DNA of 64,000 nt from assembly GCA_019058445.1 (NCBI GenBank), contig JAHPZA010000003.1, forward strand, positions 420,919-484,918, written 5' to 3'. The position numbers and the translations under genes were made by a program. The notes below the pieces were generated by a model. The model was not told the origin of the DNA, ran no database searches, and saw nothing but the letters and a program-made list of their open reading frames with translations. Position 1 is the first letter of the stretch, and the number at the start of each line of letters is the position of its first letter. Shown here one piece after another: positions 12,411 through 41,565 of this stretch. Origin of the DNA: Promethearchaeota archaeon (GTDB lineage: Archaea > Asgardarchaeota > Lokiarchaeia > Sigyniarchaeales > SOKP01).

Positions 12411-12456
12411 TAATAACTCTTTTTTCTAATTTATCGATAATTCGTTTTTTTAACAC

Positions 12457-13389: not shown

Positions 13390-13484
13390 TTTTAGCACTT
13401 CTCCTAAATTTTCTATTTGTAATTTATTATTTAATTAAATAAAATAAGATTTTGTATAAAGTGAAGTTTGTATAAATATAACAA

Positions 13485-22312: not shown

Positions 22313-23452
22313 ATGTCTGAAGCGATAGATAATAAATATAAAAAAGTTGCAAAGATTCTCACTAGTGTTCCTGGCGGATTTCCACATCCAGTATCTGATA
22401 CTTTATTGGCTATTTTAAAACATGCTATAGCAGAAGAAAACCTAAATTTTCTAATGACATTCAAAAAAAATATCTCTCAATCCATGGAACAATTGAAAGA
22501 AAGTAGTGGTCTGACTGAGGAAGAAATCTTAGAAAAAGCGGATGCATTAGCAAAAAAAGGTGTTATATTTAATCAGCCAAGCTCTAGTGGAGTTATGGTG
22601 TTTCGATTATTACCCGTTGGGAGGCAATTTGAATATACTTTCATGCAAAAGCTTGAAAAAACCAAGGAAAATATGGAGTTATCAGAATTATTCCATAAAT
22701 TAAATCAAGAAGTAGAAGATCTGATTCAAAAAAATTATGATAGATTTATCCCAGGTTTTAGTAAAATGCCTCCAGTTGATCGAACAGTACCCATTTTAAA
22801 AAACAGAGCAACAGGTAATGACCTAAATATCATCGTGAATGAGGAATTAAGAGTTCCCGAACAAGTAGTAATTCCTACTCAAAAAGTCGAAGAATTGATA
22901 AATAAGTTTGATGACATTGCTGTAGGTCATTGTTATTGCCGACAGCATAAAGAATTTTTAGGAGATCCATGTAAACAATTTGATCTCACGCCGAGTTGTT
23001 TTACTCTTGGTAAAAGTGCTCGCCATACATCTAATCATGGTTTTTCTAAATTAGTCTCAAAGGAAGAAGCACTCGAGATTTTAAAGAAAATTGAGGACGC
23101 AGGATTAGTTCATAAAGCCTATCATTTACATAGCGATACTAGCAAAGAAGAAGTAGCCATTTGTAACTGTTGTAGTTGTTGTTGTTTGACAGCACGCGAT
23201 TGTCTAATTTTCCCTGTAGCGAATGCAACCAACTACTTAGCCAGTATAGACCAAGATTTATGTATAGGATGTGGCACTTGCGTAGAAAAATGTTATAGCA
23301 AGGCTATATTTTTAAATGATGACAATAAGGCGGAAAGAATAGAAGAATATTGCGTTGGATGCGGAGTATGTGCATATTTTTGCCCCGAGAACGCGATATC
23401 TTTAATTGAAGGTCAAAGAATAGTGAGATTGAATCCCCCCCGCAAACAATAA
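22313..23452 (+). CDS. 4Fe-4S dicluster domain protein with Cys-rich central domain
   Basis: CYCR, CNCCSCCC, C-terminal CIGCGTCVEKC and CVGCGVCAYFCP ferredoxin motifs. Confidence 0.85.
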   Translation: MSEAIDNKYKKVAKILTSVPGGFPHPVSDTLLAILKHAIAEENLNFLMTFKKNISQSMEQLKESSGLTEEEILEKADALAKKGVIFNQPSSSGVMVFRLLPVGRQFEYTFMQKLEKTKENMELSELFHKLNQEVEDLIQKNYDRFIPGFSKMPPVDRTVPILKNRATGNDLNIIVNEELRVPEQVVIPTQKVEELINKFDDIAVGHCYCRQHKEFLGDPCKQFDLTPSCFTLGKSARHTSNHGFSKLVSKEEALEILKKIEDAGLVHKAYHLHSDTSKEEVAICNCCSCCCLTARDCLIFPVANATNYLASIDQDLCIGCGTCVEKCYSKAIFLNDDNKAERIEEYCVGCGVCAYFCPENAISLIEGQRIVRLNPPRKQ

Positions 23453-23561: not shown

Positions 23562-25166
23562 ATGGATCTTAAGAGACCTAATGTTGTTATAATCCTTGCT
23601 GACGATATGGGGTATTCTGATATTGGCTGCTATGGTGGGGAGATTGATTCTCCCAATCTTGATAAATTAGCCAAGAATGGGATAAGATTTACACAATTTT
23701 ATAATACGGCACGATGTTCTCCATCAAGGGCGTCATTGTTAACTGGATTACATCCTCATCAAACGGGAATTGGGATCTTAGTAGATGATGACAGTCCTGA
23801 AGGGTATGCTGGAGATCTCAATAAAAACTGTATTACAATTGCGGAAATTCTTAAAGAAAATGGATATAGGACTTACATGAGCGGTAAATGGCACATGTCC
23901 ACCAGCACATTTACAGTCTCTGATTCTTGGCCGAATCAGCGAGGTTTTGAACATTTTTATGGTACTATTATAGGAGCAGGATCTTACTTTTATCCTCGGA
24001 CTTTAACTAGAGATAATATAAATATTGATGATGAAGCTAATGAGCCAGATTTTTACTATACTGATGCGATAAGTGCCAATGCTATAAAGTATATTAATCA
24101 ACATTATAAAAATACTCCAGAGCAGCCATTTTTTCTTTATGTTGCCTATACCGCACCTCATTGGCCTTTACATGCACATGAAAAGGATATAGCGAAATAT
24201 AAGAGACGATTTGATGAGGGGTGGGATAAATTACGTCAAGAAAGACTAAAACGAATGGTGAAAATGAATATTATTGATAAAGAATGGGAATTATCAACCC
24301 GGGATCCAAATGTATCACCTTGGGAACAGGTAAAAAATAAAGGATGGGAAGCAAGGCGGATGGAAGTTTATGCCGCACAAATTGATTCTATGGATCAAGG
24401 AATAGGGAAGATCATTTCAGCGTTAGAAAAAAATGGGCAATTACAAAATACTTTGATAATTTTTCTTTCAGACAATGGTGGATGCGAAGAGCCAATTGGG
24501 GCGCGAATGGCAAAATTGATGGTAAGTGAGGGTTCCGCTCGGGAATATACCCGTTCGGGTGAAAACGTTAAATTTGGGAATAAATATCGGATAATACCTG
24601 GGGCGGAAAATACGTATCAGAGTTATGGTGTGGCGTGGGCAAATGTATCAAATACACCCTTTAGAAAATATAAACATTGGACTCATGAAGGAGGAATCGC
24701 AACGCCGTTTATTATTCACTGGCCTGAAAAAATTAAAGCAAAAGGTGAATTAAGGAATCAACAAGCGCAATTGACAGATGTTATGGCAACAATCGTAGAT
24801 ATCACCGGATCCCAATATCCAGAAGAATATAAAGGAAACAAAATCTTACCTTTGGAGGGAACTAGTTTAGTCCCGATATTTGATAATCGCGATAATGACA
24901 AAGGAATGTTATTTTTTGAGCATGAAGGCAATGCTGCAGTACGTGAAGGAAAGTGGAAACTTGTAAAGGACTATCCTAATGAATGGGAATTATATAGTAT
25001 GGAAGATGATCGCACCGAACTAAATAATCTGATTGATAAGTTTCCTGAACGTGCAAAGAATATGATAAATGCTTATGAAGAATGGGCGAAACGTTGTGGG
25101 GTAATCCCAAGAGAGAAGATTCTTGAAATATATAAGCAAAAATATAGAAATGCTCAAATAAAATAA
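23562..25166 (+). CDS. Arylsulfatase (Cys-type, formylglycine-dependent)
   Basis: ILADDMG, CSPSRASLLTG, GKWH, TAPHWP, LSDNG. Confidence 0.93.
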   Translation: MDLKRPNVVIILADDMGYSDIGCYGGEIDSPNLDKLAKNGIRFTQFYNTARCSPSRASLLTGLHPHQTGIGILVDDDSPEGYAGDLNKNCITIAEILKENGYRTYMSGKWHMSTSTFTVSDSWPNQRGFEHFYGTIIGAGSYFYPRTLTRDNINIDDEANEPDFYYTDAISANAIKYINQHYKNTPEQPFFLYVAYTAPHWPLHAHEKDIAKYKRRFDEGWDKLRQERLKRMVKMNIIDKEWELSTRDPNVSPWEQVKNKGWEARRMEVYAAQIDSMDQGIGKIISALEKNGQLQNTLIIFLSDNGGCEEPIGARMAKLMVSEGSAREYTRSGENVKFGNKYRIIPGAENTYQSYGVAWANVSNTPFRKYKHWTHEGGIATPFIIHWPEKIKAKGELRNQQAQLTDVMATIVDITGSQYPEEYKGNKILPLEGTSLVPIFDNRDNDKGMLFFEHEGNAAVREGKWKLVKDYPNEWELYSMEDDRTELNNLIDKFPERAKNMINAYEEWAKRCGVIPREKILEIYKQKYRNAQIK

Positions 25167-25181
25167 ACGATAGTCTAACTT

Positions 25182-26057
25182 TTATTTAGCTCTTTTAAGC
25201 ATAATTCTGGATATATTTCTAGTAACTTTTTGATCAGGTTTCGGATTGGTAATTACTCGATTTAAGTACGAAAATCCATTAATAAAACGCTCTTTTAAGG
25301 AGGGTCCTATATGATCTGCTCCATATACCATCCTAAATTCATGATTTATTCCATTATCAAATAATATACGATGGATAAATTCTGCACCACGATATAATCC
25401 TAACATATCTTCAGTACCTACTTCGATATATATCTTAACATCTGATTCTCGAATTTTTTCGGCGTTTTTCATAGCAAGATATGATGGATTATTCATTTTC
25501 CAATACTCTTCATCAAAAGGCGACCCAAAAATTGTTTCCATAACTTCTTTGCTACGGTAAAACTTATCTCTTTTTTTAACCTCTTTCCATTCTACGGCAG
25601 GTTCTATTCCCGGTTCAAAAGATACAAGAACTCCAAATTTATTCGGATATTTAAATCCCATTCTTAGTGTTCCCATCCCTCCCATTGAAATACCTCCGAG
25701 ATATGTTTTCTTCGGATCTTTAAAAACTCGAAAATCTTGTAAAAGAACGGGTATTAGTTCATTAAGAATGAAAGTTTCCCATTTCTGAGAACCATCTCGA
25801 TAATCCATATAAAATGATCGGTCACAATGAGGAGTAACTATTATCATTTCTATGAGCGATTTTTGTTTCCCCATATCTCGAATAAGAGGTCTAATGTTAT
25901 TTTTAAGAAATCCACTGTACCCACCACCTCCATGAAGAAGTAACATCAATGGATATGTATTATCTGTTGATTCATAATCAGATGGATATAGTACGCTATA
26001 TTTAACTGGACTCGGTACTAATTCCGTTTCTATTTTAAAATCTTGGACTTTTACCAT
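25182..26057 (-). CDS. Alpha/beta-hydrolase esterase (S-formylglutathione hydrolase / CE1-like)
   Basis: YPLMLLLHG, SFYMD, WETFILNEL, GGISMGG nucleophile elbow, GTED, GADH. Confidence 0.82.
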   Translation of the reverse strand: MVKVQDFKIETELVPSPVKYSVLYPSDYESTDNTYPLMLLLHGGGGYSGFLKNNIRPLIRDMGKQKSLIEMIIVTPHCDRSFYMDYRDGSQKWETFILNELIPVLLQDFRVFKDPKKTYLGGISMGGMGTLRMGFKYPNKFGVLVSFEPGIEPAVEWKEVKKRDKFYRSKEVMETIFGSPFDEEYWKMNNPSYLAMKNAEKIRESDVKIYIEVGTEDMLGLYRGAEFIHRILFDNGINHEFRMVYGADHIGPSLKERFINGFSYLNRVITNPKPDQKVTRNISRIMLKRAK

Positions 26058-26098
26058 TATTTTTTTTCCCTTCTAAGTATTATTATTTATAATTTGAA

Positions 26099-27052
26099 CT
26101 ATTTAAATTTAAGTTCAGAGATTGCAATCCCCGATTCACCGGCTATTACATATAATAAGAAAATTCTCTTCTCTTCTTCATAAATAGCAGGATCGCGTAA
26201 TTGACAGACTAGTCCGATTATTGCCCCTCGTAAAGATGGTTTTGGTTCTAAATTGCCTCCTTCCCAATCCATTTCGGGATGTAAAATTTCGATTGGAAGA
26301 GAGGGTTTCCATTTCTTCCAATCATTTGTTAGTTGAATAGTTGAGAGCAAAATTCTTTCTGGAGAATCTCCAACCTGCGTCCAAAAGATCTGCAATTCAT
26401 CTCCATCTATCCTTATAGCTGAATGACGCATATTTCGGTTAAATAGCATGGGACCTTGCTCAAAATTATTAATTCCATTTTGAGATCTATAGAATATGCC
26501 CGGCATAGACATTCCATAAAACCATCCATTGTATTTAAATACTCTAAGGTAAGGAAAGGAAATAATATCTGGCTCCGCATTAAAATGGATTCCGTCTTTA
26601 GAAAGTGCAACCCTCGTCATTTGGTGTCCGGTCTTTAAAAGACCATGGTAATACATTCGAATTTCTTGTATATCATCTAGGACATGGACATCTGGAGATG
26701 CTATATGAGGCATTGACTCATCTGGACCGTTATATTTTGGATCTTGAGTGATTTTTACTATTCGATTTGAAGGAGTTGTAGGAAATAGAGATTCTTCCAA
26801 ATGAAGGGTACCCTTATTGTATATTTGCCATGGTCCCTCCAGATGATCAGCATATGCCAACCTTATATAATCTCCCTTATGTGCTGAAAAATATAGGTAA
26901 TACCTGCCAAGACACTCATCAATCCAGTTAGGCACACGAATTAATGAAGGTCCTGCTATATTTTTTCCTAAACTGTCATCCATCTCAGGGTAAATTATTG
27001 GATTATTTTTAAATCGCGTTATTTCAAATTTTATAATTTCCTTTTCCGCCAT
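26099..27052 (-). CDS. Five-bladed beta-propeller glycoside hydrolase-like protein
   Basis: NNPII, GPSLI, YYLYFS, HIASPDV, MYYHG, SKDGIHF, QLRDPAI repeats typical of GH43/32/130-like propellers. Confidence 0.6.
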   Translation of the reverse strand: MAEKEIIKFEITRFKNNPIIYPEMDDSLGKNIAGPSLIRVPNWIDECLGRYYLYFSAHKGDYIRLAYADHLEGPWQIYNKGTLHLEESLFPTTPSNRIVKITQDPKYNGPDESMPHIASPDVHVLDDIQEIRMYYHGLLKTGHQMTRVALSKDGIHFNAEPDIISFPYLRVFKYNGWFYGMSMPGIFYRSQNGINNFEQGPMLFNRNMRHSAIRIDGDELQIFWTQVGDSPERILLSTIQLTNDWKKWKPSLPIEILHPEMDWEGGNLEPKPSLRGAIIGLVCQLRDPAIYEEEKRIFLLYVIAGESGIAISELKFK

Positions 27053-27122
27053 TTTATTATCATTGATATTATGATTAATATTTAGATTTAAGAAAAATCT
27101 TATCTATCTTTTTTGATTATAT

Positions 27123-28283
27123 TCACACAGGTTTTAACGGATATTTCCTATATTTCTCAATAGCAGCTCTTAGTGATAAAATATTATCCCATGGTGCATT
27201 GAGAACATTATGACTTGGCCCAGCGAAATATCCCCCTCCTTGAGCAGCAGCACTAATACATCTTTTTACTTCTTCCTCAACATCTTTTGGAGTTCCAAAA
27301 TTTAAGATGTCAGAAGAATCTATGCCACCGATAAAGCATAAGCGATTGCCAAGTGTGTTTTTTAATTGTGCTAAATCAACTCCCGCTGCCGGTTCTAATG
27401 CCTCAACAGCATTTAAACCTGCATTAACCATATGTGTTAATAATTTATCAATATATCCACATGAATGTTGGACAATTAACATATCTCTTTTTTTACACGC
27501 ATTATATATTTTTTTATAATAAGGAAGGACGAATTCCAAAAAGTTTTGAATAGAAAAGATGGAACGCCCTTTATACCCTAAATCATCAAACATAAACGCA
27601 ATTTCAACCCCCGCCTCTCCAAAACGTTTCACAAACTCAATGTTAGTCTTTGCGTATTCTGACATGACTTCGTGGATAAACTTCGGATCTTTTTTCATGT
27701 AATATTTTGCTCTAATAATTGTCATTCCTTCAAAAAGCGCTTCGTGAGGAGCTATTGGTAAAATAGCCATAGGAAAGAAATATGGTGATAGAGTTTCAAC
27801 AAAATCTTCCCATATCTGAGGGGAATAATTTACCTTATCGTTAATCAATTCTGATGGCCTTCCAAACTTCTCCCAGAGTGTGTATCGCCGTTCTGGGGTC
27901 GTAAAATAGCCATCTACATACCACACATAATCCCATCCCGTTTCAATTTGTTTTACGTTTTTATAGATTTTACCACTAATAGGATTAATTTGGCAATTGG
28001 GATATTCAGGGGGTGCTTTTTGACGTTTAAATTTCAATTTTGAGCCAAAGGGATCCATACAGTACGTATCAACATTCCAAAACTGCTGTTCGGTGATAGA
28101 GAATTTCGCTTTCTTGAACTTAGGTTTCACCCACATAGTATTTTCCTTTCTTTCCTTGGAATTTAAATAATATTGAAACGAAGTACCACTCTGCTCAAAT
28201 CCACTATTGAAAATGGGCACTATATCAGGCTCTCCATCAAGTTCAAGCGTACGTAATACGCGTTCTCTTTTTGTTAATCCCAT
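27123..28283 (-). CDS. UroD/MtaA-superfamily methyltransferase paralogue 1
   Basis: KRERV N-terminus, DDLG, QHSCG, GGID, GTP.DVEEEV, GPSHN; ATG 28283 aligns with the starts of the other paralogues. Confidence 0.85.
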   Translation of the reverse strand: MGLTKRERVLRTLELDGEPDIVPIFNSGFEQSGTSFQYYLNSKERKENTMWVKPKFKKAKFSITEQQFWNVDTYCMDPFGSKLKFKRQKAPPEYPNCQINPISGKIYKNVKQIETGWDYVWYVDGYFTTPERRYTLWEKFGRPSELINDKVNYSPQIWEDFVETLSPYFFPMAILPIAPHEALFEGMTIIRAKYYMKKDPKFIHEVMSEYAKTNIEFVKRFGEAGVEIAFMFDDLGYKGRSIFSIQNFLEFVLPYYKKIYNACKKRDMLIVQHSCGYIDKLLTHMVNAGLNAVEALEPAAGVDLAQLKNTLGNRLCFIGGIDSSDILNFGTPKDVEEEVKRCISAAAQGGGYFAGPSHNVLNAPWDNILSLRAAIEKYRKYPLKPV

Positions 28284-28346
28284 AGTATAAGGTTTTAAAT
28301 ATTTTAATTTAAAAAATTTGACAATAAGTATTAAGACTTTCAAAAA

Positions 28347-29510
28347 TTAGTTTAATTTTAAAGGATATTTGCGGTACTTTTCAATAGCAGCTCTCATTGC
28401 GAGCACATTTTCCCAGGGCATGTTTAAAATATTGTGACTAGGTCCTACAAAATATCCGCCACCTGGAGCTGCTACTTTTATACATCTTTTTACTTCTTCT
28501 TCAACATCTTTCGGAGTTCCAAAGTTAAGAACTCGAGAAGAATCTAATCCTCCCAGAAAGCACACTCTTTCGCCTAAAGTTTCTTTTAAATGTGTCAGAT
28601 CAACGCCAGAGGCTGGTTCAAGTGATTGAATACCGCTTAACCCCGCATCGACCATATCAGGCAAAAATTCATCAATTTTTCCACATGAATGTTGGATGAT
28701 AAACATTCCGTTTTTTTTACACGCTTCATATGTTTTTTTATAATACGGTAAAACAAATTCTCGAAAACTGCTGATAGAAAAAATAGTTTGACCCTTATAA
28801 CCCAAATCATCCCCCATCCAAGCTACCTCAACGCCAGCTTCAGCAAAACGCTTTATAATTTCGATATTCGCTTTAGTATACTCTCCAATTACATCATGAA
28901 TGAATTGGGGCTTTTTACGCATATAAAATGCTACTTTTGGTATTGTTATCCCTTCGAATAAAGCTTCATGAGGAGAAATCGGCAATTCTGCAAATGGATA
29001 AAGGTATGGAGAAAGTGCTTCAACGTAACTTTCCCATATCTCTGGAGAGTAATTAATCCGATCGTTTATTAATTCTGACGGTCTCCCATATTGATCCCAG
29101 TAAGAATATAAAATTTCTGGGGTTTTGAAATATCCATCGATATACCATGAATAATCCACGCCAGTTTCTACCTGTTTTACGTTCCTATATAACCTGCCAC
29201 TAATTACGTCAAGACGACAATTTGGATATTCTGAAGGTGCTTTTCTCATTTTGTGCTTTACTTTTGAATAGCCCCAGGGATCCATATGATGAGCATCAGC
29301 ATTCCAAAATCGCTGTTCCGTTATTAAATATTTAATTTTCGTAATTTTGCATTGAACAGCTAGCTCAGACTCTTTTCTTTCTTTAGAATTTTGGAACTGA
29401 TGAAATGAATCACTGGTACGTTCAAATCCCATATTATGAATAGGGACCATATCTGGTTCTTCATCGAGTTCAAGAGTTCGAAATACTCGTTCTCGTTTTG
29501 ATAATACCAT
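28347..29510 (-). CDS. UroD/MtaA-superfamily methyltransferase paralogue 2
   Basis: SKRERV, MGDDLG, QHSCG, GPSHN. Confidence 0.85.
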   Translation of the reverse strand: MVLSKRERVFRTLELDEEPDMVPIHNMGFERTSDSFHQFQNSKERKESELAVQCKITKIKYLITEQRFWNADAHHMDPWGYSKVKHKMRKAPSEYPNCRLDVISGRLYRNVKQVETGVDYSWYIDGYFKTPEILYSYWDQYGRPSELINDRINYSPEIWESYVEALSPYLYPFAELPISPHEALFEGITIPKVAFYMRKKPQFIHDVIGEYTKANIEIIKRFAEAGVEVAWMGDDLGYKGQTIFSISSFREFVLPYYKKTYEACKKNGMFIIQHSCGKIDEFLPDMVDAGLSGIQSLEPASGVDLTHLKETLGERVCFLGGLDSSRVLNFGTPKDVEEEVKRCIKVAAPGGGYFVGPSHNILNMPWENVLAMRAAIEKYRKYPLKLN

Positions 29511-29557
29511 AGTTATAAGGATAATTTTTGTTTTAAAAAATGTTTGTATAGATTAAT

Positions 29558-30721
29558 TTAAGCTAAATTTAAAGGATATTTTCGATATTTTTCAATGGCA
29601 GCTCTCATTGCGAGCACATTCTCCCAGGGCATGTTTAAAATATTGTGACTAGGTCCTACGAAATATCCGCCACCTGAAGCTGCTGTTTTAATTCCTCTTT
29701 TTACTTCTTCTTCAACCTCTGCAACTGTTCCAAAGTTCAAAATTCTAGAGGAATCCAATCCCCCCAGAAAGCACAAACGATCTCCTAATGTTTCCTTCAA
29801 ATGCGCCAAATCAACACCAGCGGCTGGTTCAAGTGCTTGAATGCCGTTTAACCCAGCATCTACCATATCAGGCAAGAACTCATCGATTTTTCCACATGAA
29901 TGTTGTATGATATAAATTCCGCGTTTTCTACATGCCTGATAAATCTGCTTATAATAGGGAAGGATGAATTCTCTTAATTGTTTTAAGGAAAAGATAGTCT
30001 GGCCTTTATATCCCAAATCATCAAACATAAATACAATCTCAACTCCCGCTTCAGCAAAACGCTTAATAATTTCAACGTTAGTTTTTGCATATTCTGCCAT
30101 TACCTCATGAATGAATTGTGGATTCTTGCGCATATGATACGCGACCTTGGTAATAGTCATCCCCTCAAAAAGCGCTTCATGAGGAGCGATAGGAAGCCAA
30201 GCCATAGGATACAGATAAGGTGAAAGTGCTTCCACAAAAGCTTCCCAAATCTGAGGAGAATAATTGGGCCTATCATTGATTAATTCTGAAGGTTTCCCAT
30301 ATTTATCCCAATATGAATATACAATGTCAGGGGACCTAAAATATCCATCAATATACCATGAATAATCTAACCCTGTCTCAACTTGCTTTACATTCTTATA
30401 TAATCTTCCGGTTAAAGTATCAATACGGCAATCGGGATATTCTGGAGGGGCTTTTTTAATTTTTTTTTTCACTTTTCCTACTCCCCATGGATCCATAAAA
30501 TTAGCATCGACATTCCAGAATCGTTGTTCTGTTATATAATATTTTAATTTAGTTGCCTTGCTTTGAACCCATGAAAGACAATTTTTTCTTTCATCAGAAT
30601 TCTGATAGTCTAAAAAGGTTTTACTTGTACGTTCAAATCCCAACGTAAAAATTGGGACCACATCAGGTTCTCCTTCGAGCTTAACTGTCCGAAGTACTCT
30701 CTCTCTTTTTGATAATACCAT
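29558..30721 (-). CDS. UroD/MtaA-superfamily methyltransferase paralogue 3
   Basis: SKRERV, MFDDLG, QHSCG, GPSHN. Confidence 0.85.
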   Translation of the reverse strand: MVLSKRERVLRTVKLEGEPDVVPIFTLGFERTSKTFLDYQNSDERKNCLSWVQSKATKLKYYITEQRFWNVDANFMDPWGVGKVKKKIKKAPPEYPDCRIDTLTGRLYKNVKQVETGLDYSWYIDGYFRSPDIVYSYWDKYGKPSELINDRPNYSPQIWEAFVEALSPYLYPMAWLPIAPHEALFEGMTITKVAYHMRKNPQFIHEVMAEYAKTNVEIIKRFAEAGVEIVFMFDDLGYKGQTIFSLKQLREFILPYYKQIYQACRKRGIYIIQHSCGKIDEFLPDMVDAGLNGIQALEPAAGVDLAHLKETLGDRLCFLGGLDSSRILNFGTVAEVEEEVKRGIKTAASGGGYFVGPSHNILNMPWENVLAMRAAIEKYRKYPLNLA

Positions 30722-30804
30722 AGTAAAGGTTTAATTGTATTTCTTAAATAAATTTTCTTTATAATTATTCAAGAAATCACATAATTGTATAATATCCCTC
30801 TAAT

Positions 30805-31974
30805 TCAATTTATATTTAGAGGATACATGCGATATTTCTCAATTGCAGCTCGTAAAGCTAGAATATTTTCCCAAGGCGCATTGAGGATATTGTGACTTGG
30901 TCCCGCGAAATATCCTCCTCCTCGAGCAGCGGCTTTAATACATCGTTTTACTTCTTCTTCAATATCTTTTGGAGTTCCAAAGTTGAGAATATTAGAGCTA
31001 TCAATTCCACCTAAAAAGCTCAACCGATCTCCAAGTGATTCTTTTAAATGTGGTAAATCGACGCCTGCGGCAGGTTCAAGCGCTTGAATTCCATTAAGAC
31101 CTGCTTTGACCATATGAGGCAATAATTTATCAATATATCCACAGGAATGTTGAATAAAGAACATACTGTTTTTCTTAGCCGCTTGATACATCTGTGTATA
31201 ATATGGGAGTAAAAATTCCTTAAATTGCTCAATGGAGAAAATTGAGCGCCCTTTGAATCCTAAATCGTCTAGATTAAATACTATATCAACACCAGCTTCT
31301 GCTAATCTCTTAATAACTTCTAAATTTAGCTTAGTATATTCATTCAGAACTTCGTGAATGATTTTTGGATTTTTTCTCATATAATATCCTACTCGCGGAA
31401 TGGTCATCCCTTCGAATAAAGATTCAGATATAGGTACTGGTAAAATAGCCATGGGATACAAGTATGATTCAAGTGACTTTATGTAACTATCCCAAATCTG
31501 CGGGGAGTAATTTAAGTTATCATTAATCTGATCAATAGGTTTTCCATATTTATCCCAGTATTCGTGGACGATCTCAGGCGTTTTAAAATAGCCATCTTCA
31601 TACCATATATACGATAGCCCTGTATCGATTTGTTTGGTAGCCTTAAAAATTCTTCCATCAAGTGGAAACATACTCCCTTTAGGATATTCAGGAGGAGCTT
31701 CAATAATTATGAAATTAAATTTTACCCCCCATGGGTCCATTCCATGAAGATCTACATTCCAGAATCGTAATTCTGTAATACTTCCAGCCCACTGATATTT
31801 AAACCTTGAGAAATCATTTTTAATATAGGTTTTGTATTTTGTATACTCCTCAGATTTCCGGAAGTATTGATAAGAAATACCTGTTTTTTCAAGTCCTAAA
31901 TTATGTATAGGGATTATATCGGGTTCTTCAAGCTCCAGAGTCCTAATAACGCGTTCGCGTTTTGATAAAGTCAT
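30805..31974 (-). CDS. UroD/MtaA-superfamily methyltransferase paralogue 4
   Basis: SKRERV, NLDDLG, QHSCG, GPSHN. Confidence 0.85.
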   Translation of the reverse strand: MTLSKRERVIRTLELEEPDIIPIHNLGLEKTGISYQYFRKSEEYTKYKTYIKNDFSRFKYQWAGSITELRFWNVDLHGMDPWGVKFNFIIIEAPPEYPKGSMFPLDGRIFKATKQIDTGLSYIWYEDGYFKTPEIVHEYWDKYGKPIDQINDNLNYSPQIWDSYIKSLESYLYPMAILPVPISESLFEGMTIPRVGYYMRKNPKIIHEVLNEYTKLNLEVIKRLAEAGVDIVFNLDDLGFKGRSIFSIEQFKEFLLPYYTQMYQAAKKNSMFFIQHSCGYIDKLLPHMVKAGLNGIQALEPAAGVDLPHLKESLGDRLSFLGGIDSSNILNFGTPKDIEEEVKRCIKAAARGGGYFAGPSHNILNAPWENILALRAAIEKYRMYPLNIN

Positions 31975-31990
31975 GATTGATCATTATCTT

Positions 31991-33175
31991 TTAATTTAGA
32001 TTTAAAGGGTATTTCCTATATTTTTCAATAGCAGCTCTTAGTGCTAAGATATTTTCCCAAGGGGCATTTAGAATATTGTGACTCGGTCCAGCAAAATAAC
32101 CTCCACATTGAGCAGCTGCTCTAATGCATCTCTTTACTTCCTCCTCAACATCTTTTGGAGTTCCAAAATTAAGTATATTAGAACCGTCAATACCACCTAG
32201 AAACACCACACTATCACCTAAAGTTTCTTTTAAATGAGCGAGATCCACTCCTGCTGCGGGCTCAAGGGCTTGGATACCATTCAATCCCGCCTCAACCATA
32301 TGAGGTAATAGTTTGTCTATATATCCACAGGAATGTTGAATAATGAACATGCTATTTTTCTTAGCCGCTTGATAAATCTGTCGGTAATATGGCAGAATAA
32401 ATTCTTTAAATTGCTCAACTGAAAAAATAGATCGCTGTTTCATGCCTAAATCATCTTCATAAAACACGATGTCGACGCCAGCTTCTGCTAGCCTCTTAAT
32501 TATTTCCAAGTTAACTTTCGTGAATTCATTCATTACTTCATGTATAAACTGGGGGTCTTTTCTCATGTAGTAGGCTACTCTCGTTATCGTCATTCCTTCG
32601 AATAATGATTCATGCATACTAATAGGTAGCAAAGCCATTGGATACAAATAATTTGATAGTTTTTCCACAAAATTATCCCAAATATCAGGAGAATAGTTCA
32701 TTTTATTATTAATGAACTCAATAGGTTTGCCATATTTATCCCAATATTCATGTACAATTTCTGGGGTTTTAAAATAACCATTCTCGTACCATAAATACAT
32801 CAAACCAGTATTAATTTGAGGAGCAATTTTCCAAATTCTTCCGTCATATGGTAACATAACACATTCAGGAAATTCAGGAGGTGCCTTGATCGGTTTCATT
32901 TTAAATTTATCAATTCCCCAAGGATCCAATGAATGGAGGTCTGCGTTCCAGAACCGTAATTCGATTATACTCCCTGTAATTCCCATAAGTACTTTGAACT
33001 TCATTTTTAAAACCTCATTTTCTATTCCCGCTCTAATATTCTTGTATTCTTCCGATTTTATAAAATACTGGTTAGAACTTCCCGTCCATTCAAATCCTAA
33101 ATGGTGAATTGGCACCATATCGGGCTCTTCAAGCTCTAAAGTTCTGATTACTCTTTCTCTTTTTGAAAGTGCCAT
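31991..33175 (-). CDS. UroD/MtaA-superfamily methyltransferase paralogue 5
   Basis: SKRERV, YEDDLG, QHSCG, GPSHN; ATG 33175 aligns with the paralogue starts. Confidence 0.85.
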   Translation of the reverse strand: MALSKRERVIRTLELEEPDMVPIHHLGFEWTGSSNQYFIKSEEYKNIRAGIENEVLKMKFKVLMGITGSIIELRFWNADLHSLDPWGIDKFKMKPIKAPPEFPECVMLPYDGRIWKIAPQINTGLMYLWYENGYFKTPEIVHEYWDKYGKPIEFINNKMNYSPDIWDNFVEKLSNYLYPMALLPISMHESLFEGMTITRVAYYMRKDPQFIHEVMNEFTKVNLEIIKRLAEAGVDIVFYEDDLGMKQRSIFSVEQFKEFILPYYRQIYQAAKKNSMFIIQHSCGYIDKLLPHMVEAGLNGIQALEPAAGVDLAHLKETLGDSVVFLGGIDGSNILNFGTPKDVEEEVKRCIRAAAQCGGYFAGPSHNILNAPWENILALRAAIEKYRKYPLNLN

Positions 33176-33344
33176 ATGCAAATATATACCTTATGATTTA
33201 AAAAAAGTTTTTAGTCGAATGCTTGAAAAAATAGTGATTTAAAAATAATAAAAATCTATTCAAAATCCTTTTCGATAAAAAAAAAATAATTAATAATTCT
33301 TTCACTCTAAATATTATATAATCAAAAAATATCGGTTTAATATT

Positions 33345-33980
33345 ATGGATTATGAACAATTAACAGAACTTATAGTAGAATTGGAGCTCGATGATATTGC
33401 GGATGCAGTAAAGGAGGCCCTTGAGGCGGATGGGAAAGACCCATTTGATGTGTTATCCGCACTTACTGCAGGAATGGATGAAGTAGGGCGGCGATATGAT
33501 GATGAGATTTATTATTTAGCAGACTTAATGCTGGCAGCAGAGACTATGAAGGTTGCATTAGATGTTTTGAAACCGGAATTAGCTTCATCTGAAAAAGTGA
33601 AAGAGAAAGTAAAAATCGTTATCGCAACCGTTAAAGGAGATAATCATGATATCGGGAAGAATTTACTTGGAATATTATTGATGAGTGAAGGATTTGAAGT
33701 ATACGATTTAGGTAAAGATGTGGATGCTGAAGCTATTGTGGCAAAGGTAAAAGAAACAGGTGCTACAATCGTTGGTTTGAGTTCACTCTTAAGTATGACT
33801 GTTCCCCAAATTGAAGTTGTTCATGAAGCACTTAAAGCTGCGGGGTTACGAGATAAAGTGAAATTAATTGTTGGTGGAGCGCCTCTAAGTATGGATCTAG
33901 CCAAGCAATTTGGAGCAGATGATTTTGCCGAAGATACGATTAAAGGAATTTCACACATAAAAGATTTAGCTGGAATCTAA
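33345..33980 (+). CDS. Methyltransferase cognate corrinoid protein (MtbC/MttC/MtaC-like)
   Basis: Four-helix cap (AGMDEVGRRY..YLADLMLAAETMK) plus B12-binding GDNHDIGKN, DLGKDV, GLSSL, VGGAP. Confidence 0.93.
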   Translation: MDYEQLTELIVELELDDIADAVKEALEADGKDPFDVLSALTAGMDEVGRRYDDEIYYLADLMLAAETMKVALDVLKPELASSEKVKEKVKIVIATVKGDNHDIGKNLLGILLMSEGFEVYDLGKDVDAEAIVAKVKETGATIVGLSSLLSMTVPQIEVVHEALKAAGLRDKVKLIVGGAPLSMDLAKQFGADDFAEDTIKGISHIKDLAGI

Positions 33981-34121
33981 TTTTTTCATTCCTTTTTTCT
34001 TATTTTTTCTATTTTTTTAAAATCAAGGTCTTTTGAGGTTCTTTATAAACTTTCGAGCAAGATCATTATTGAATTTATAAATTAGATTAATTATTAAAAT
34101 AAAAAAAATTGATTAATTGCG

Positions 34122-35537
34122 TTAAATTACACCTTTTTCTTTAAGCATTTGTAGATATTTCGCTTCTTTTTCTTCATGTATTTTTTTTAATTCTTCTTTT
34201 TGTTTCATCCATTCGGGACCTCCGAGAGGATAAAATTTTACACAAAGTCCTCCAATTAAAAGTACTATTCCCGGAATAATAGTAAAGGCCAGCATTATAC
34301 CAAGTTGTGCGTTAGCTGTTTGAGTTGATGCATGTTCATTAAATCCAAAGGCCAATACGACCCAAATAAAAACAGCTGGTGCAATAGATATAGCTGGTTT
34401 CTGCACAAGCGCTTCTATACCGGCATAAGTTGCTTCCCTTCTTTTACCAGTCTTTAATTCATCGTAATCAACCACATCCCCAAAAACCATCTGTACCATA
34501 AGATAAAAACCTGAAAATGCTGCTCCTAATACCATTAAACCGATGAAAGCTGTTATATAGACCCAACCTATTAGAATAAATGCTGTAAAACCAATTCCTA
34601 ATATGATAAGGGAAGTCATAAACGCATTTTTAAGGCCTATTTTCAATACGACTTTATTCCACACAGGAAGGAACAAAATAAGCATCAAAAAGAATACTAG
34701 GATCGGGAGAAGAGCTAAAAGTCCTCCGACTTGAAGGACAAAATCAAGATAGTAAAAGACAGCAGTACCAAGAACTTGTTGAGCAAAATAGAAGCAGAAA
34801 TAAGGAATCAAATACAAATTAAAAGCCTTATTTTTAAAGGTGGTTTTAATACCTTCGATGAATCCCATAGGTTCTTCCATTACCGTAAATTTATTTTCTG
34901 TTATGTAATATGAACTTGCGAATAATGCTATTCCACAAATAATACCAATAATAGTCATTAATATTATTATATCAAGATTGATTCCTTTCCGTTCTGTTCC
35001 AGTGAATAGAAGTATAGGTACAGCCAGCGAAAGAAAACTAGCAATAGTAGATGCAACACCTCCATAAGTCATTAAGTTACCACGAGCTTTCGAGGATATG
35101 GCCATCTCTGCTGGAAGGAGCCATGTGATCATCAATATAATTGTTATCATTGTATCAATTGCAAAAAGAACAAATACGAAATAAAGGAACAGGGCAAATT
35201 GATCGTTAATATCGACTAATGGGATCCAACATATAATAAAAGTTAGTGCAAAAAATGGAGCACCAAATCGAATCACCGGAATTCTTCTTCCATATTTTTC
35301 GCTGTGTATTCTATCTTCTAAATATCCTATTATTGGATCATTGAGAGTATTCCATACCAAGAAAATTACCCATCCTATGGCAATCCATGTTGCTGATAGC
35401 CCTAAGATAATATTGTAATAGTATGTTATTGCGACCATTGAAATATTTCCTAAGATGCTGCCTGCTAATTGAGCACCTCCAAATGCCATTTTCGCACTTC
35501 TTGGAAGTTTCTCTTCAAATTCTTCAACAACACTCAT
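34122..35537 (-). CDS. MFS transporter, GPH/MelB-like family
   Basis: WNTLNDPIIGYLEDR, YGRRIP, GDVVDYDELKTGKRREATYAG. Confidence 0.88.
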   Translation of the reverse strand: MSVVEEFEEKLPRSAKMAFGGAQLAGSILGNISMVAITYYYNIILGLSATWIAIGWVIFLVWNTLNDPIIGYLEDRIHSEKYGRRIPVIRFGAPFFALTFIICWIPLVDINDQFALFLYFVFVLFAIDTMITIILMITWLLPAEMAISSKARGNLMTYGGVASTIASFLSLAVPILLFTGTERKGINLDIIILMTIIGIICGIALFASSYYITENKFTVMEEPMGFIEGIKTTFKNKAFNLYLIPYFCFYFAQQVLGTAVFYYLDFVLQVGGLLALLPILVFFLMLILFLPVWNKVVLKIGLKNAFMTSLIILGIGFTAFILIGWVYITAFIGLMVLGAAFSGFYLMVQMVFGDVVDYDELKTGKRREATYAGIEALVQKPAISIAPAVFIWVVLAFGFNEHASTQTANAQLGIMLAFTIIPGIVLLIGGLCVKFYPLGGPEWMKQKEELKKIHEEKEAKYLQMLKEKGVI

Positions 35538-35662
35538 TTTCAATCACTTTTGTTGTTTTTTTATGAAAAATAAATATATTAACATTTTTTTTAAAAATAT
35601 TTAAATTTATTTAATTGTCTTTTTTTTCGAAGCAATAAAATTGTTAAATGCTGATTTGAGAA

Positions 35663-36661
35663 TTAATCAAATCGATTAACGAGTTCTTGTCGAGCTACTT
35701 GTAGATTCATAGGTGGTAAACCTTTTAATAGAGCTTCCACATCGTCAGTGACCATGCGACCTATATTTCGACGTGCTTGTAAGGCAGAACCAGCCATATG
35801 GGGGGTGAAAATTATATTTTTGGCCTTGCGAACAGGATGATCCTTAGGTAATGGCTCTACAGGAAAAACATCAACAGCTGCTTTAAACCTATTATCATTA
35901 GTTAATTCTATAAGAGCATCAAAATCGATTAAATGAGCACGACTTAATAATATTAAAATAGAGTCACTTTGAATTTTTTGTAGCTTTTCGCGTGAGAGAA
36001 GAGCTTTATTTTCAGCTGATGGTATTGCTAATACAAAAATAAATTTAGACGTTTCTAAGAGGGTTTCTAAAGTGACTGAAGATACTCCTTGTTTCTTGAG
36101 ATAGCTACTTGGAAGCCATGGATCATATGCTTGAATCTTACATCGAAAGGGCTCAAGCAATGGTTTAAACGCTCGAGCGAGATTGCCATATCCAATTATT
36201 CCTACAACTTGGTCATACAGTGTAGAAACATTCATATTCTGCCACTTTTCAGTTCCTGACCTTAAAGCTCTATCTGATTCTACTATATCGCGTGCAGCAG
36301 AGATTGCCAGCCCTAATCCCATCTCTGCTACCATTGGGGCGAATGCGGGTGCACAGCTTAAAACCCGGATATTCCGTTCAAAGCAAATATCATAATCAAG
36401 TACTTTAGGTGAAGGATGTTGTCCACCAACTTCAATAATCGCTTCTAAATTTGGTGCACTCTCCTTATCGACCGACCCATAGCGCCAGAAGCCAGTAATA
36501 ATAATAGAGGCTTCTTTCTTAGCCTCTTTCCATTCTTTTTTCGGCATCTTCTTATCCTTACCCCAGATTATTTCCGCTGTGCTTTTTAATCGTTCTAGAT
36601 CTTCGGAATAAAAGATAGTATGCAAGGTACGGAAATAGGGATCTAATAGTATTTTTTTCAT
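35663..36661 (-). CDS. D-isomer-specific 2-hydroxyacid dehydrogenase
   Basis: GIIGYGNLA, YDPW, SRAHLID, DVFPVEP, TPHMAG. Confidence 0.88.
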   Translation of the reverse strand: MKKILLDPYFRTLHTIFYSEDLERLKSTAEIIWGKDKKMPKKEWKEAKKEASIIITGFWRYGSVDKESAPNLEAIIEVGGQHPSPKVLDYDICFERNIRVLSCAPAFAPMVAEMGLGLAISAARDIVESDRALRSGTEKWQNMNVSTLYDQVVGIIGYGNLARAFKPLLEPFRCKIQAYDPWLPSSYLKKQGVSSVTLETLLETSKFIFVLAIPSAENKALLSREKLQKIQSDSILILLSRAHLIDFDALIELTNDNRFKAAVDVFPVEPLPKDHPVRKAKNIIFTPHMAGSALQARRNIGRMVTDDVEALLKGLPPMNLQVARQELVNRFD

Positions 36662-36680
36662 AATTTTTAAAACTTAATCT

Positions 36681-37043
36681 TTAATTTTCTTCTATAAATA
36701 TTTTTTTTATAAAATTAGGAGCCATAAAACCAAAATAAAAGAAAATAGCACCTATTATATTAACTACTCGTGTAATAACAATTAAGAGAGATCTCGTAAT
36801 AATTATTGCTTCAAGAAATATACTCACAAATATAAAAATAAACCCTAAAAATATGAAATTCCCTTTTAAAATAGTCAAATTATTCCCGGACTTAAGACAG
36901 TTAAAAACAAATAGAAATCCGGTTATCATTATAATTGAAATATAGATTACAAAATATATGTTTATTAAGTCAAACCAAACCATATAATGACCTCTTCTGA
37001 ATTCTCCTATTGAACTAGGATTCGTGAAAAAAGTGTAATAATA
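36681..37043 (-). pseudogene. 5'-truncated remnant of a multi-pass (7TM-type) membrane protein
   Basis: Only about 3 TM remain (TGFLF..LKS..LKG.F..R..FYFGF..P.FIKK); the frame continues 20 codons upstream of ATG 36983 (IYYTFFTNPSSIG) to a TAG, with no room for an N-terminus before 37093. Confidence 0.55.
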
Positions 37044-37092
37044 GATCTAGGATTATAAATATATTATTTTTTATTTTATAATTTATTATATA

Positions 37093-38157
37093 ATGGTAAA
37101 TTCTAATATGGTAAATTCTTTAGAGTTAACACTTTCGAGCATTAAGGGCATACCAGAAATAATACCTTTTAATCCATTTATCATGCATTTAGCAGCTTCA
37201 ATTATAAATGTGGATTATAATCAAGAATATTGTAGAAATCCAGATAATTTAGTAAAAGGCCAAATAAAATGTTCTGAATTCTTCGGAATAGACCATGTAA
37301 ATGTTTCGACAGATGCTTATCGCGAGGCTAATGCTTGGGGAGTTGAAATTAATTGGGAAAGCCATACTCCTGTTGCGAATACTCATCTAAGAATCGATGA
37401 CTTTGATTCAATCGATCCTCCCGATTTAACTTCAAATATAAGAATCATGAATAGAGTTAATGCGGTAAAAAAACTAGCTCAAAAGATTGGAGGGACACAA
37501 TGTATAGTTGGTTGGATTGAGGCTCCTTTTGCCGAAATCTGTTGTTTATTTGACTTAATTAATGTTTTAAAATTATGCAGATATGATGATTGGGAAAAGC
37601 AAATTAAAAATTTAATAAATAGAATCCTTCCAATACAAAAGGAATTTGCTGAGATGCAGATTGAAGCAGGAGCTAATATAATTGGAGCTGGCGATTCGGC
37701 AATTTCTCAAATTGGGCCTAAAAGATATGAAAAATGTTGTTTATCAGATACTAAAGACTTATTCAACCACATTCAGAAGAAAGTTCCCGTATTATATCAT
37801 ATATGTGGTGATAACTCTGTAGTGGACAAGGATGGTAGAGATATGTTAAATTTAGTATCGAGCACTAATGCCGCTATATTGGATTTAGATTATCAAGTTG
37901 ATTTAAAAATGGCAAGAGAAAAAATAGGAAAAAACAATTGTATAAGAGGAAATACTAATACCCAAATATTGGGAAGTACAACTTATTCCGCGTTGGATGT
38001 AATAACCGAAGTATCTAAAACTATAAAAATAGGAAAACCGGGAGGAATGTATATGTATGCTGCAGGATGTGAATGGCCTTGGGAACCAAAAGAGATGGCA
38101 ATCCGAAACCTTAGTATAGCTAAGGCTTTAGTTGAAGAAACAGGAAAATATTCATAA
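37093..38157 (+). CDS. MtaA/MtbA-type methylcobamide:thiol (CoM-like) methyltransferase, UroD fold
   Basis: EANAWG, GWIEAPF, AGANIIGAGDSAIS, and the Zn-thiolate ligand set YHICG ... AAGCEW (HxC...C). Confidence 0.8.
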   Translation: MVNSNMVNSLELTLSSIKGIPEIIPFNPFIMHLAASIINVDYNQEYCRNPDNLVKGQIKCSEFFGIDHVNVSTDAYREANAWGVEINWESHTPVANTHLRIDDFDSIDPPDLTSNIRIMNRVNAVKKLAQKIGGTQCIVGWIEAPFAEICCLFDLINVLKLCRYDDWEKQIKNLINRILPIQKEFAEMQIEAGANIIGAGDSAISQIGPKRYEKCCLSDTKDLFNHIQKKVPVLYHICGDNSVVDKDGRDMLNLVSSTNAAILDLDYQVDLKMAREKIGKNNCIRGNTNTQILGSTTYSALDVITEVSKTIKIGKPGGMYMYAAGCEWPWEPKEMAIRNLSIAKALVEETGKYS

Positions 38158-38327
38158 AGATAATTCATCAAAGACTATGGATATATGATCATTTCGCTCA
38201 ATCTTAAATTATGATCTGAGATTACTTTCTATTAATATCAAATTTAGATTAATTATCTAAAATTCTGGTATTTATAATTCAGAAGTTATTAATTAAGATA
38301 TTATTTAAATTAAAATAGTGGTGTAAA

Positions 38328-39308
38328 ATGAATATTAGACTTGATAAAAATGAAATGCCTGAACCTCCGCCAAGAAATATCATTGAGGAGATTAAACTAA
38401 GTATTGACCAAATTAATCGGTACACTTCTCAAAAAGAGGTAAATAGATTAATTGAAATGTTATCTGAATATGCAAATGTGCCTCTAGAATCATTAATATT
38501 AAGTTCAGGCTCAGATATTCTGATTAAGGAGTTTATTTATCTTTTTTCAAAAGGACGTCAAATCATTATCGTAGATCCAACTTTTTTCTTAATTTCGAAT
38601 GCCGCTCAGAAAACATCCTCTCCGATATTAAAAGTTCGACTAAAAGAACCAAAATTTAATTTCCCTTTAGAACCTTTACTTGATGAAATTAATAAACCGA
38701 CACTGATAATTATAGATAATCCTAATAATCCGACGGGAAATTTGCTCTTAGATAAAAATAAAGTAAAAATGTTGTTGGAAAATGAGCACTTGATAATATT
38801 AGTTGATGAAGCATACTTTGAATTTTCCAGAGTTGGTGTTGCTGATTTGATAAGAAATTATCCCAATTTAGCTGTTTCTAGAACCTTATCTAAAGCTTTT
38901 GGATTGGCTGGTTCGGGAATAGGTTATTTAATCGCGGGAGAATTAGTTCAACAAAGATTCTCTGGTCTTGAAATTATGCTTCCTTATCCAAGTATAATTG
39001 CGGGAATTCAAGCTTTAAAAAATAGGGAGTATATGAAAGAATTTATAAAAGAAGTTAACCAAGAAAAGAAGAGGGTCATGAAACTATTATCTGAACTAGG
39101 AATCATTGTGTATCCAAGTTATACAAACTTTTTGTTGATAAAATCAGAAATTCCTGATTTGGCTCAAAAATTAGAGAAAAAAGGGATCTACGTTTCGAAT
39201 TTATCTCACTATTCATTAAGTGCAGAATTTATTAGAGTAAGTATTGGCTCGAAAATTGAAAATGATAATTTTGTAAATATTTTAAGAGCCATTATTGAAA
39301 ATCATTAG
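38328..39308 (+). CDS. PLP-dependent class I/II aminotransferase (HisC/CobD-like)
   Basis: IRLDKNE, DNPNNPTG, VDEAYFEF, SRTLSKAFGLAG, SYTNFLL, IRVSIG. Confidence 0.85.
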   Translation: MNIRLDKNEMPEPPPRNIIEEIKLSIDQINRYTSQKEVNRLIEMLSEYANVPLESLILSSGSDILIKEFIYLFSKGRQIIIVDPTFFLISNAAQKTSSPILKVRLKEPKFNFPLEPLLDEINKPTLIIIDNPNNPTGNLLLDKNKVKMLLENEHLIILVDEAYFEFSRVGVADLIRNYPNLAVSRTLSKAFGLAGSGIGYLIAGELVQQRFSGLEIMLPYPSIIAGIQALKNREYMKEFIKEVNQEKKRVMKLLSELGIIVYPSYTNFLLIKSEIPDLAQKLEKKGIYVSNLSHYSLSAEFIRVSIGSKIENDNFVNILRAIIENH

Positions 39309-41541: not shown

Positions 41542-41565
41542 AATAAATCAAGGGTGAATAGAAAC

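Follow-up and report, generated by a model that had tools for sequence, protein, structure and literature searches.

What might five tandem genes of the UroD family, set head-to-head with a single gene for a corrinoid protein, do in an Asgard archaeon? The arrangement lies in a stretch of 64,000 nucleotides (the window; C3:420919-484918) of genome G000 of a Promethearchaeota archaeon, an assembly of 4.6 Mb that is 92.6% complete. Close homologues of the window's genes are labelled Promethearchaeota, Hod-, Thor- and Hermodarchaeota, which fits an Asgard origin, and the window also encodes a gelsolin-repeat protein (56617-57222), a eukaryote-signature protein consistent with that origin. The five genes are members of an uncharacterised clade of the UroD/MtaA superfamily, which we named Usub. 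With modest confidence, we consider it probable that Usub and the head-to-head corrinoid protein make up the loading side of a methyl-transfer system dependent on corrinoid, in which the Usub proteins would be substrate-specific methyltransferases 1 (MT1) served by one carrier. The genes concerned, with positions in the window, are:

27123..28343 (probable start 28283), minus strand: Usub paralogue U1 (PF01208, 96 bits; motifs DDLG, HSCG and PSHN)
28347..29510, minus strand: Usub paralogue U2 (PF01208, 102.7 bits)
29558..30721, minus strand: Usub paralogue U3, the modelled copy (PF01208, 105.3 bits)
30805..31974, minus strand: Usub paralogue U4 (PF01208, 90.4 bits)
31991..33181 (probable start 33175), minus strand: Usub paralogue U5, head-to-head with the corrinoid protein (PF01208, 105 bits)
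33182..33344, no strand: AT-rich intergenic region from which U5 and the corrinoid gene diverge (sequence inspection)
33345..33980, plus strand: corrinoid carrier protein (PF02607, 61.7 bits; PF02310, 78.2 bits; DNHDIG motif)

The initial annotation had described five tandem UroD-fold genes divergent from a stand-alone corrinoid protein, and all of these genes are found where it placed them. Starts at 28283 (U1) and 33175 (U5) are likely because nothing in the alignment corresponds to the additional N-terminal residues. The AT-rich spacer would be a promoter region common to U5 and the corrinoid gene; the same head-to-head arrangement occurs in another locus (L041), with a spacer of about 113 bp.

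The five Usub copies are 63–67% identical to each other and match PF01208 with 90–105 bits, against a cut-off of 23.9, over their C-terminal half only. Taken alone, the name of this Pfam family would make them true uroporphyrinogen decarboxylases (HemE), an identity of negligible probability that we rejected, in agreement with the initial annotation, on TIGR01464 scores of 25–37 bits against a cut-off of 302.95; the unmatched N-terminal half and the presence of 27–30 UroD-family genes in this one genome speak against it as well. Scores were also low for TIGR01463 (MtaA/CmuA; 64–74 bits, cut-off 235.4) and PRK06252 (72–83 bits, cut-off 244). Since the scores for the MtaA/CmuA, MtbA and HemE NCBIfam models are all far under their cut-offs, the five proteins are neither HemE nor strict members of the MtaA family.

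In an AlphaFold2 model of U3 (predicted local distance difference test, pLDDT, 88; predicted template modelling score, pTM, 0.90), the UroD-type barrel is complete and its N-terminal half carries a beta-rich insert of some 80 residues (about residues 50–126). Foldseek placed MtaA first (4ay7, E 1.7e-13), followed by UROD and MetE, with template modelling (TM) scores of 0.59–0.69 against MtaA and UROD. By sequence, the best PDB matches of the Usub profile were CdmB (E 2.9e-10), in an alignment that covers residues 190–382 only, and MtaA (1.2e-8); a search with U5 as a single sequence likewise returned CdmB (9rui, E 5.9e-8) and then MtaA. Identity to MtaA, MtbA and MtsA is 14–15%.

With respect to the MtaA-type zinc set, His-x-Cys plus a distal Cys, the five copies have the His-x-Cys and carry His in place of the distal Cys: HSCG of Usub aligns on the MtaA zinc motif LHICG, and PSH on the third ligand, a Cys in MtaA, at which position CdmB has SFQ. 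These residues are highly conserved among 72 family members (H274 in 72, C276 in 68 and H359 in 69), throughout which Asp234-Asp235, Lys239 and Asp323 are invariant. The paralogues diverge most in the insert (residues 50–130, 53% identity, compared with 73% in the C-terminal half), and the presence of several old paralogues with variation centred in the insert is an MT1-like pattern.

The alignment of His-x-Cys with zinc ligands of MtaA, and the order of the best structural matches, MtaA and then MetE, also suit sulfur chemistry. Usub could then comprise S-demethylases similar to MtsA/MtpA, acting on methylmercaptopropionate, dimethylsulfide or methylthio-sugars, or methyltransferases 2 (MT2) that deliver methyl groups to thiols as MtaA and core-MetE do. 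We regard this as unlikely: the third ligand is His, not Cys, and the occurrence of several old paralogues in one genome, in catabolic contexts, is more easily explained for an MT1 than for an MT2.

How old is the array? Full-length relatives (at least 46% identity) are found almost exclusively in Asgard metagenome-assembled genomes, and after clustering at 50% there are few Usub representatives before identity drops below 40% and matches cover the C-terminal half only. In a phylum-wide sample of 121 genomes, with 15 candidates per genome scored, Usub was seen only in the GTDB family of the window; within G000, the five tandem copies are the only Usub genes. In a tree of the 72 members (quick IQ-TREE, SH-aLRT support), U1 groups with the single orthologues L006_2140 and L010_9992, U2 and U3 with L006_860 and L007/L014_10001, and U4 and U5 with L007/L014_8734. 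By these groupings, the five copies represent at least three lineages older than the split from other Promethearchaeota genomes, for which reason we rejected a recent tandem burst. An array assembled from old lineages fits functional specialisation, not recent amplification. A contig binned as 'Candidatus Nanopelagicaceae bacterium' (L026, DATKTW010000155.1) carries a typical Usub gene, 63% identical and nested among Promethearchaeota rows; it is probably a mis-binned Asgard contig.

Is the facing corrinoid protein the partner of these enzymes? It combines a cap domain (PF02607) with a Rossmann B12-binding domain (PF02310), has the DxHxxG motif as DNHDIG, and scores 160.9 bits with TIGR02370, under the cut-off of 215.3. 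The comparison covered 60 further Usub loci, which contain 67 full-length Usub genes, and counted carriers no more than two genes away. A corrinoid protein was that close to 20 of the 67, as against 1.45% for a random gene in G000. The rate of adjacency is some 20 times that of the baseline, and at least four gene orders are represented, mostly head-to-head as in the window: a pair beside FwdA/B/D-like genes, a coenzyme A (CoA)-transferase and a VWA protein, in at least 11 genomes; a block of two carriers and three UroD genes (L007, L014); a block similar to that of the window (L010); and a co-directional arrangement (L054). Moreover, the carriers adjacent to Usub form one clade (13 rows, support 99), the sister of which is the carrier beside the closest non-Usub UroD paralogue (C10:685749/686984), indicating that enzyme and carrier were duplicated as a pair. 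Co-occurrence of carrier and Usub across genomes is confounded, as genomes that lack Usub carry the sister C10-type carrier and not the cognate one.

Modelling of the U3–carrier complex gave a score of 0.77, the best of three controls reaching 0.00; among solved complexes 58 of 80 attain this mark, and among mismatched pairs 2 of 110, counts that are only a rough guide with the custom alignments used. The runs agreed in at least 96% of contacts and the pLDDT of the partner was at least 85. In the predicted interface, the carrier residues flanking the cobalt-ligating His (98, 100 and 103) lie against Usub residues 238–248 and 362–363, adjoining the conserved acidic pair and lysine (DD...K) and His359. 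The predicted complex supports the adjacent corrinoid protein as the cognate partner of Usub. Overall, the initial proposal of corrinoid methyltransferases with one carrier common to the five is the most likely one, and is well supported by comparative analysis (the linkage and the carrier clade) and structural prediction.

The single Usub–carrier pair was observed within a conserved block in L017, L019, L021, L031, L034, L037, L038, L040, L041, L042 and L059; the block comprises VWA/CoxE-like, CoA-transferase III, FwdA-, FwdD- and FwdB-like, ferredoxin and NUBPL/ParA-type ATPase genes. A B12-binding radical-SAM enzyme and an amine-oxidase-like flavoprotein adjoin the block of two carriers and three UroD genes (L007:2971-4485, also L014).

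How would the carrier be unloaded? The initial annotation assigned this step, as an MtaA-type MT2, to a further UroD gene of the window:

37093..38157, plus strand: sixth UroD-family protein, U6 (PF01208 over its full length, 135.8 bits; motifs LYHICGD and AAGC)

U6 is 21% identical to the five copies, has the complete MtaA-type His-x-Cys...Cys set and scores 63.7 bits with TIGR01464. Its homologues, of 347–349 residues and 74–94% identical, occur across many Asgard genomes in varying contexts. At the three other U6 loci examined we found neither a carrier nor Usub nearby, the occasional UroD neighbours not being Usub, and none of the 60 Usub loci examined showed U6 next to Usub. We therefore rejected U6 as the MT2 of the system, because it belongs to a separate Asgard family that is not co-inherited with the array and whose closeness to it is not conserved; it probably stands outside the array's system.

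No MtrH or pterin-binding gene was found in the window or in any Usub locus examined. The genome contains a single MtrH homologue (C3:100167), about 350 kb away and with no other mtr genes around it, which is a better candidate for the MT2 than U6; a lone MtrH without other mtr genes is the arrangement of MtoA in methoxydotrophic archaea (PMC8359953). There is also a single RamA/RACo-type activase (PF14574, RACo_C_ter, 306 bits; contig C10), unlinked to the array, as well as two pterin-binding proteins and the acetyl-CoA synthase CdhC. ComA was not found in the 92.6%-complete genome, making coenzyme M an unlikely acceptor and arguing further against the sulfur alternative. In total, the 27–30 UroD-family genes of G000 are accompanied by 11–14 carriers, one MtrH and one RamA-type activase. 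An apparent carrier–methyltransferase fusion lies elsewhere on C3 (666854-668515, L082): a single frame of about 500–557 residues encodes a B12-binding cap domain together with a UroD barrel that has the motif IHCCG...GC and, at 209 bits, the highest UroD score in the genome.

In the scheme that we favour, each paralogue would bind a different but related methylated compound at the conserved His-x-Cys...His site, where the metal is probably zinc, on the C-terminal face of the TIM barrel. The direction of transfer would be from substrate to the Co(I) of the one carrier common to all five, the role of an MT1. The carrier would probably be unloaded by the free-standing MtrH homologue onto tetrahydromethanopterin, from which the methyl group would enter the Wood-Ljungdahl pathway, and the single RamA-type activase, encoded elsewhere, would keep the carrier reduced.

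Several observations weigh against this scheme. The characterised UroD-fold enzymes MtaA, MtbA, MtsA and MetE use their His/Cys zinc sites on sulfur. Alignment with any characterised enzyme is limited to the C-terminal half of Usub, with MtaA/CmuA NCBIfam scores of 64–83 bits against 235–244, and no MT2 or activase linked to Usub was found in any locus examined. For 47 of the 67 Usub genes in the other loci, no carrier lies at a distance of up to two genes. In addition, G000 contains a co-oriented run of a GH29 fucosidase, a UroD gene, the fucose isomerase FucI and a second UroD gene (C3:274318-279856), no corrinoid protein being found within 8 kb of it; both of its UroD-like proteins have DDxG...HSCG...H motifs as in the five, and are the nearest paralogues with that motif set. 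Further HSCG-type paralogues of the genome lie at C2:162141, C4:104214 and C4:105687. A bacterial relative lies, again with no carrier, in a sugar operon with an AP_endonuc_2 isomerase, a class II aldolase and a PfkB kinase. Relatives in sugar operons that lack a carrier indicate that corrinoid-independent sugar chemistry is possible for the wider clade. Extended to Usub itself, this would make the five proteins sugar-modifying enzymes independent of corrinoid, with the carrier serving something else. We consider this quite improbable in view of the twentyfold adjacency in several gene orders, the separate clade of Usub-adjacent carriers and the score of the complex model relative to its controls.

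If Usub loads the carrier, what does it demethylate? The genes around the array are the main source of evidence:

22313..23452, plus strand: Fe-S protein with a C-terminal 2x[4Fe-4S] domain (Fer4-type Pfam matches at residues 310–365 only)
23562..25166, plus strand: sulfatase, converging on the array's transcription unit from the esterase side (PF00884, 223.6 bits)
25182..26057, minus strand: esterase of the PF00756 'putative esterase' family, closing the co-oriented run (69.2 bits)
26099..27052, minus strand: five-bladed beta-propeller protein of 317 residues with GH43/GH130 fold (AlphaFold and Foldseek; no Pfam match above threshold)
34122..35543, minus strand: GPH/MFS_2 transporter, candidate importer (PF13347, 221.7 bits; cut-off 27)
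35663..36661, minus strand: D-isomer-specific 2-hydroxyacid dehydrogenase, at most a candidate component of the system (PF02826, 134.2 bits)
36681..36983, minus strand: open reading frame of 100 residues (no Pfam match; 26 phmmer matches in the genome)
38328..39308, plus strand: HisC-like class I/II aminotransferase (PF00155, 128.5 bits; TIGR01141, 237.5 bits, under the cut-off of 276.55)

Seven co-oriented genes, from U5 to U1 followed by the beta-propeller gene and the esterase, are separated by gaps of 16–83 bp (41 bp between the last two), making a single transcription unit likely. The beta-propeller gene and the esterase are kept after the U1 orthologue in L006 and L010. The Fe-S gene is a syntenic neighbour of the module, present in both of these loci; PDB matches of its product are confined to the ferredoxin domain, with none in the N-terminal 300 residues. 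The sulfatase is present in L006 and absent from L010.

An AlphaFold2 model of the beta-propeller protein (pLDDT 92.4) is all-beta, and its top Foldseek matches are GH130 phosphorylases and GH43 hydrolases (E 1.6e-9, TM about 0.6). In sequence comparisons, Pfam GH43 gave only a sub-threshold match (E 0.12) and a profile search of the PDB only E 0.016; the protein has more than 7,700 homologues, of which bacterial ones are 53–56% identical and a few are annotated as GH43. The initial description as a beta-propeller hydrolase thus stands at the level of fold but has no Pfam match above threshold behind it, and the modelled protein is a candidate glycoside hydrolase or phosphorylase-like enzyme of the GH43/GH130 fold.

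Carbohydrate-type genes recur at some other Usub loci. One has GH3 and four MFS_2 genes adjacent and another MFS_2 with AP_endonuc_2, and in at least nine loci Usub adjoins a protein of 711–716 residues, with a sub-threshold GH31 match, and a GPH transporter. For the 713-residue version of this neighbour (Type B loci) no PDB sequence match was found, the GH31 match being the only one in Pfam, and no Pfam family was found for conserved Usub neighbours of 206, 215, 426 and 429 residues. The GH29–FucI run and the sugar operon of the bacterial relative also speak for a carbohydrate-derived substrate, but with no carrier nearby these relatives may carry out another chemistry. The window itself contains a DUF2961 (GH172-type) gene divergent from a second MFS_2 transporter (6767-9599), a GH4 gene (53072-54442) and two carboxylesterases with BD-FAE matches (16361-17887 and 58615-60117).

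We tentatively take a methylated sugar or glycoside as the single most likely class of substrate. The substrates would probably be freed from imported conjugates by the co-transcribed GH43/GH130-fold enzyme and the esterase, with help from the sulfatase, and the His-Cys-His zinc site would assist the departure of alkoxide, a poor leaving group, in a manner similar to the activation of methanol by MtaB. The chemistry is in line with aliphatic ethers: aryl ethers provide a good leaving group and some of their MT1s are metal-free, whereas alkyl methyl ethers would, as methanol does, depend on activation by a Lewis acid, and the retention of the metal motif in Usub would on this reasoning favour an aliphatic ether. 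Usub may then, although we consider this less likely than not, represent the first corrinoid-dependent O-demethylases of aliphatic (sugar) methyl ethers; our literature searches pairing methylated sugars with corrinoid demethylases found nothing.

The sugar context put forward in the initial annotation holds insofar as carbohydrate-type genes are real in the window and recur in some loci. Of the neighbourhood then expected to be conserved, carrier adjacency was borne out, but U6 is unlinked and a GPH/MFS transporter lies within two genes of Usub in 16% of cases, only about twice the 8.4% for a random gene in G000. The genome has 68 GPH homologues by phmmer, 100 MFS-type matches by profile and 21–28 sulfatases, and membership in the GPH family leaves the transported solute unreadable. 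Furthermore, the orthologues of U2–U5 in L007 lie among CoA ligase, acyl-CoA dehydrogenase and flavoenzyme genes, with no sugar genes, and the window is rich in beta-oxidation-type genes and carboxylesterases, which weighs against over-reading its sugar context. It encodes six 3-hydroxyacyl-CoA dehydrogenase paralogues and a beta-keto acid cleavage enzyme (BKACE) at 9722-13398, 41554-42387, 45484-46398 and 49193-51810, and elsewhere thiolases, an enoyl-CoA hydratase and an AMP-dependent ligase, a dense island of acyl-CoA or keto-acid catabolism around the array.

The same architecture could instead act on methoxylated aromatics, such as ferulate- or vanillate-type acids from esters or phenolic glycosides, as an O-demethylase set resembling Mto/Odm in which the sugar-type genes would merely deliver the aglycone. 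We view this as possible but rather less likely. Aryl O-demethylation is the activity of the characterised UroD-fold MT1s that are accompanied by a carrier and an MFS transporter (PMC8359953, PMC8630106), and Mto homologues have been reported in Lokiarchaeota (PMC8359953). The contents of the window (the PF00756 esterase, the two BD-FAE carboxylesterases, the AMP-dependent ligase, the enoyl-CoA hydratase and the thiolases) would suit aromatic acids too, as would the CoA ligase and acyl-CoA dehydrogenase, in the absence of sugar genes, beside the U2–U5 orthologues in L007.

A second array in the same genome is instructive in this respect. It consists of a tandem group of four genes at C3:342352-351429 (L078), whose products of some 430 residues show full-length similarity to CdmB (E 5.7e-31). 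Beside them are genes for a corrinoid protein of 207 residues, an HdrD-like CCG protein, an esterase of Abhydrolase_3/BD-FAE type, an ADP-forming CoA ligase and two transporters of the GPH family. A carrier accompanied by GPH transporters and an esterase is consequently no proof of a sugar methyl group. The comparison also separates Usub from these CdmB/MtoB-like enzymes: Usub matches CdmB over its C-terminal half only, at the far weaker E value given above, and keeps an MtaA-type metal motif that the CdmB-like copies lack. No aromatic-ring pathway genes were identified beside the Usub array.

By analogy with the characterised enzymes of this fold, whose His/Cys metal sites work on sulfur, thioethers are a serious alternative. 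Genes resembling the steps that follow methylmercaptopropionate are present: a CoA ligase and an acyl-CoA dehydrogenase lie beside the L007 orthologues, and a ligase and a hydratase are in the window. Soluble coenzyme M methyltransferase homologues in non-methanogens have been proposed to serve methyl-sulfur or methyl-selenide metabolism (PMC10418091). Sulfur substrates would leave the glycosidase-fold and esterase partners unexplained.

The HisC-like aminotransferase, the last gene of the range and not named in the initial annotation, shows no evident link to the system. Longer relatives (243–245 residues) of the 100-residue open reading frame were seen near Usub in L011, L061 and L073.

The anaerobic harvesting of methyl groups known so far covers methanol, methylamines, methylated thiols, aryl methyl ethers, quaternary amines and halomethanes. 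To our knowledge it does not extend to methylated sugars, which commonly decorate the glycans of algae, plants and microbes. If the sugar assignment were true, Asgard archaea could feed the methyl groups of O-methylated, sulfated or acylated glycans into the Wood-Ljungdahl pathway, and the locus offers a concrete, clonable set of five enzymes and one carrier. Whatever the substrate, Loki-type Asgard archaea carry an unusually large repertoire of corrinoid methyltransferases, and methyl groups may therefore be a significant source of carbon or electrons for these relatives of eukaryotes. The locus also provides a natural series on the UroD barrel, changing substrate while keeping the metal site.

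How does the proposed system compare with known ones? Corrinoid systems with UroD-fold MT1s are known for aryl ethers and haloalkanes. Demethylation of a methylated sugar, 6-O-methyl-D-galactose, is carried out in aerobic marine bacteria by a cytochrome P450, which would be a functional counterpart of Usub if the sugar assignment is right, but is oxidative, O2-dependent and of an unrelated protein family. MtaA, MtbA and MtsA (4ay7) share with Usub the UroD TIM barrel, being its best structural match, a His-x-Cys in register and a separate corrinoid protein of MtaC type. They differ in that the third ligand of Usub is His rather than Cys, that Usub has the beta-rich insert of about 80 residues, that its proposed role is loading and not unloading, and that no marker of a coenzyme M pathway was found in G000.

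The aryl O-demethylases MtoB, OdmB, VdmB and MtvB, together with CdmB (9rui; PMC13222342), include the best PDB sequence match, occur as MT1 arrays beside one carrier and have N-terminal extensions inserted into the barrel. In contrast to Usub with its metal motif, CdmB is reported to have no metal site (PMC13222342), its aligned residues are SFQ, and the alignment is confined to the C-terminal half. The real CdmB-like genes of G000 are those of the other array; CdmB homologues have been noted in Sigynarchaeales (PMC13222342), and these Asgard genes (L076) are only 27–28% identical to Usub.

The Mto system of Methermicoccus shengliensis and Archaeoglobus fulgidus (MtoB, MtoC, the MtrH-like MtoA, MtoD and MFS transporters; PMC8630106, PMC8359953) follows the overall logic proposed here, with a UroD-fold MT1, a carrier, an MtrH-type MT2 acting on tetrahydromethanopterin, a RamA-type activase and an MFS importer. 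It differs in that the MT2 and the activase are unlinked single-copy genes in G000, the MT1 is of a different clade, the transporter is of GPH type, and genes for a protein with a carbohydrate-active enzyme fold, an esterase and a sulfatase are attached to the Usub array.

Finally, Type 1 mlp clusters (PMC10418091) also place several UroD-superfamily paralogues around one corrinoid protein outside methanogens, in an account that makes no mention of Asgard archaea. Mlp proteins are defined by more than 25% identity to characterised coenzyme M methyltransferases (PMC10418091), and Usub is more distant and Asgard-restricted. Usub and its own carrier are a new, Asgard-restricted enzyme clade within a known kind of methyl-transfer system.

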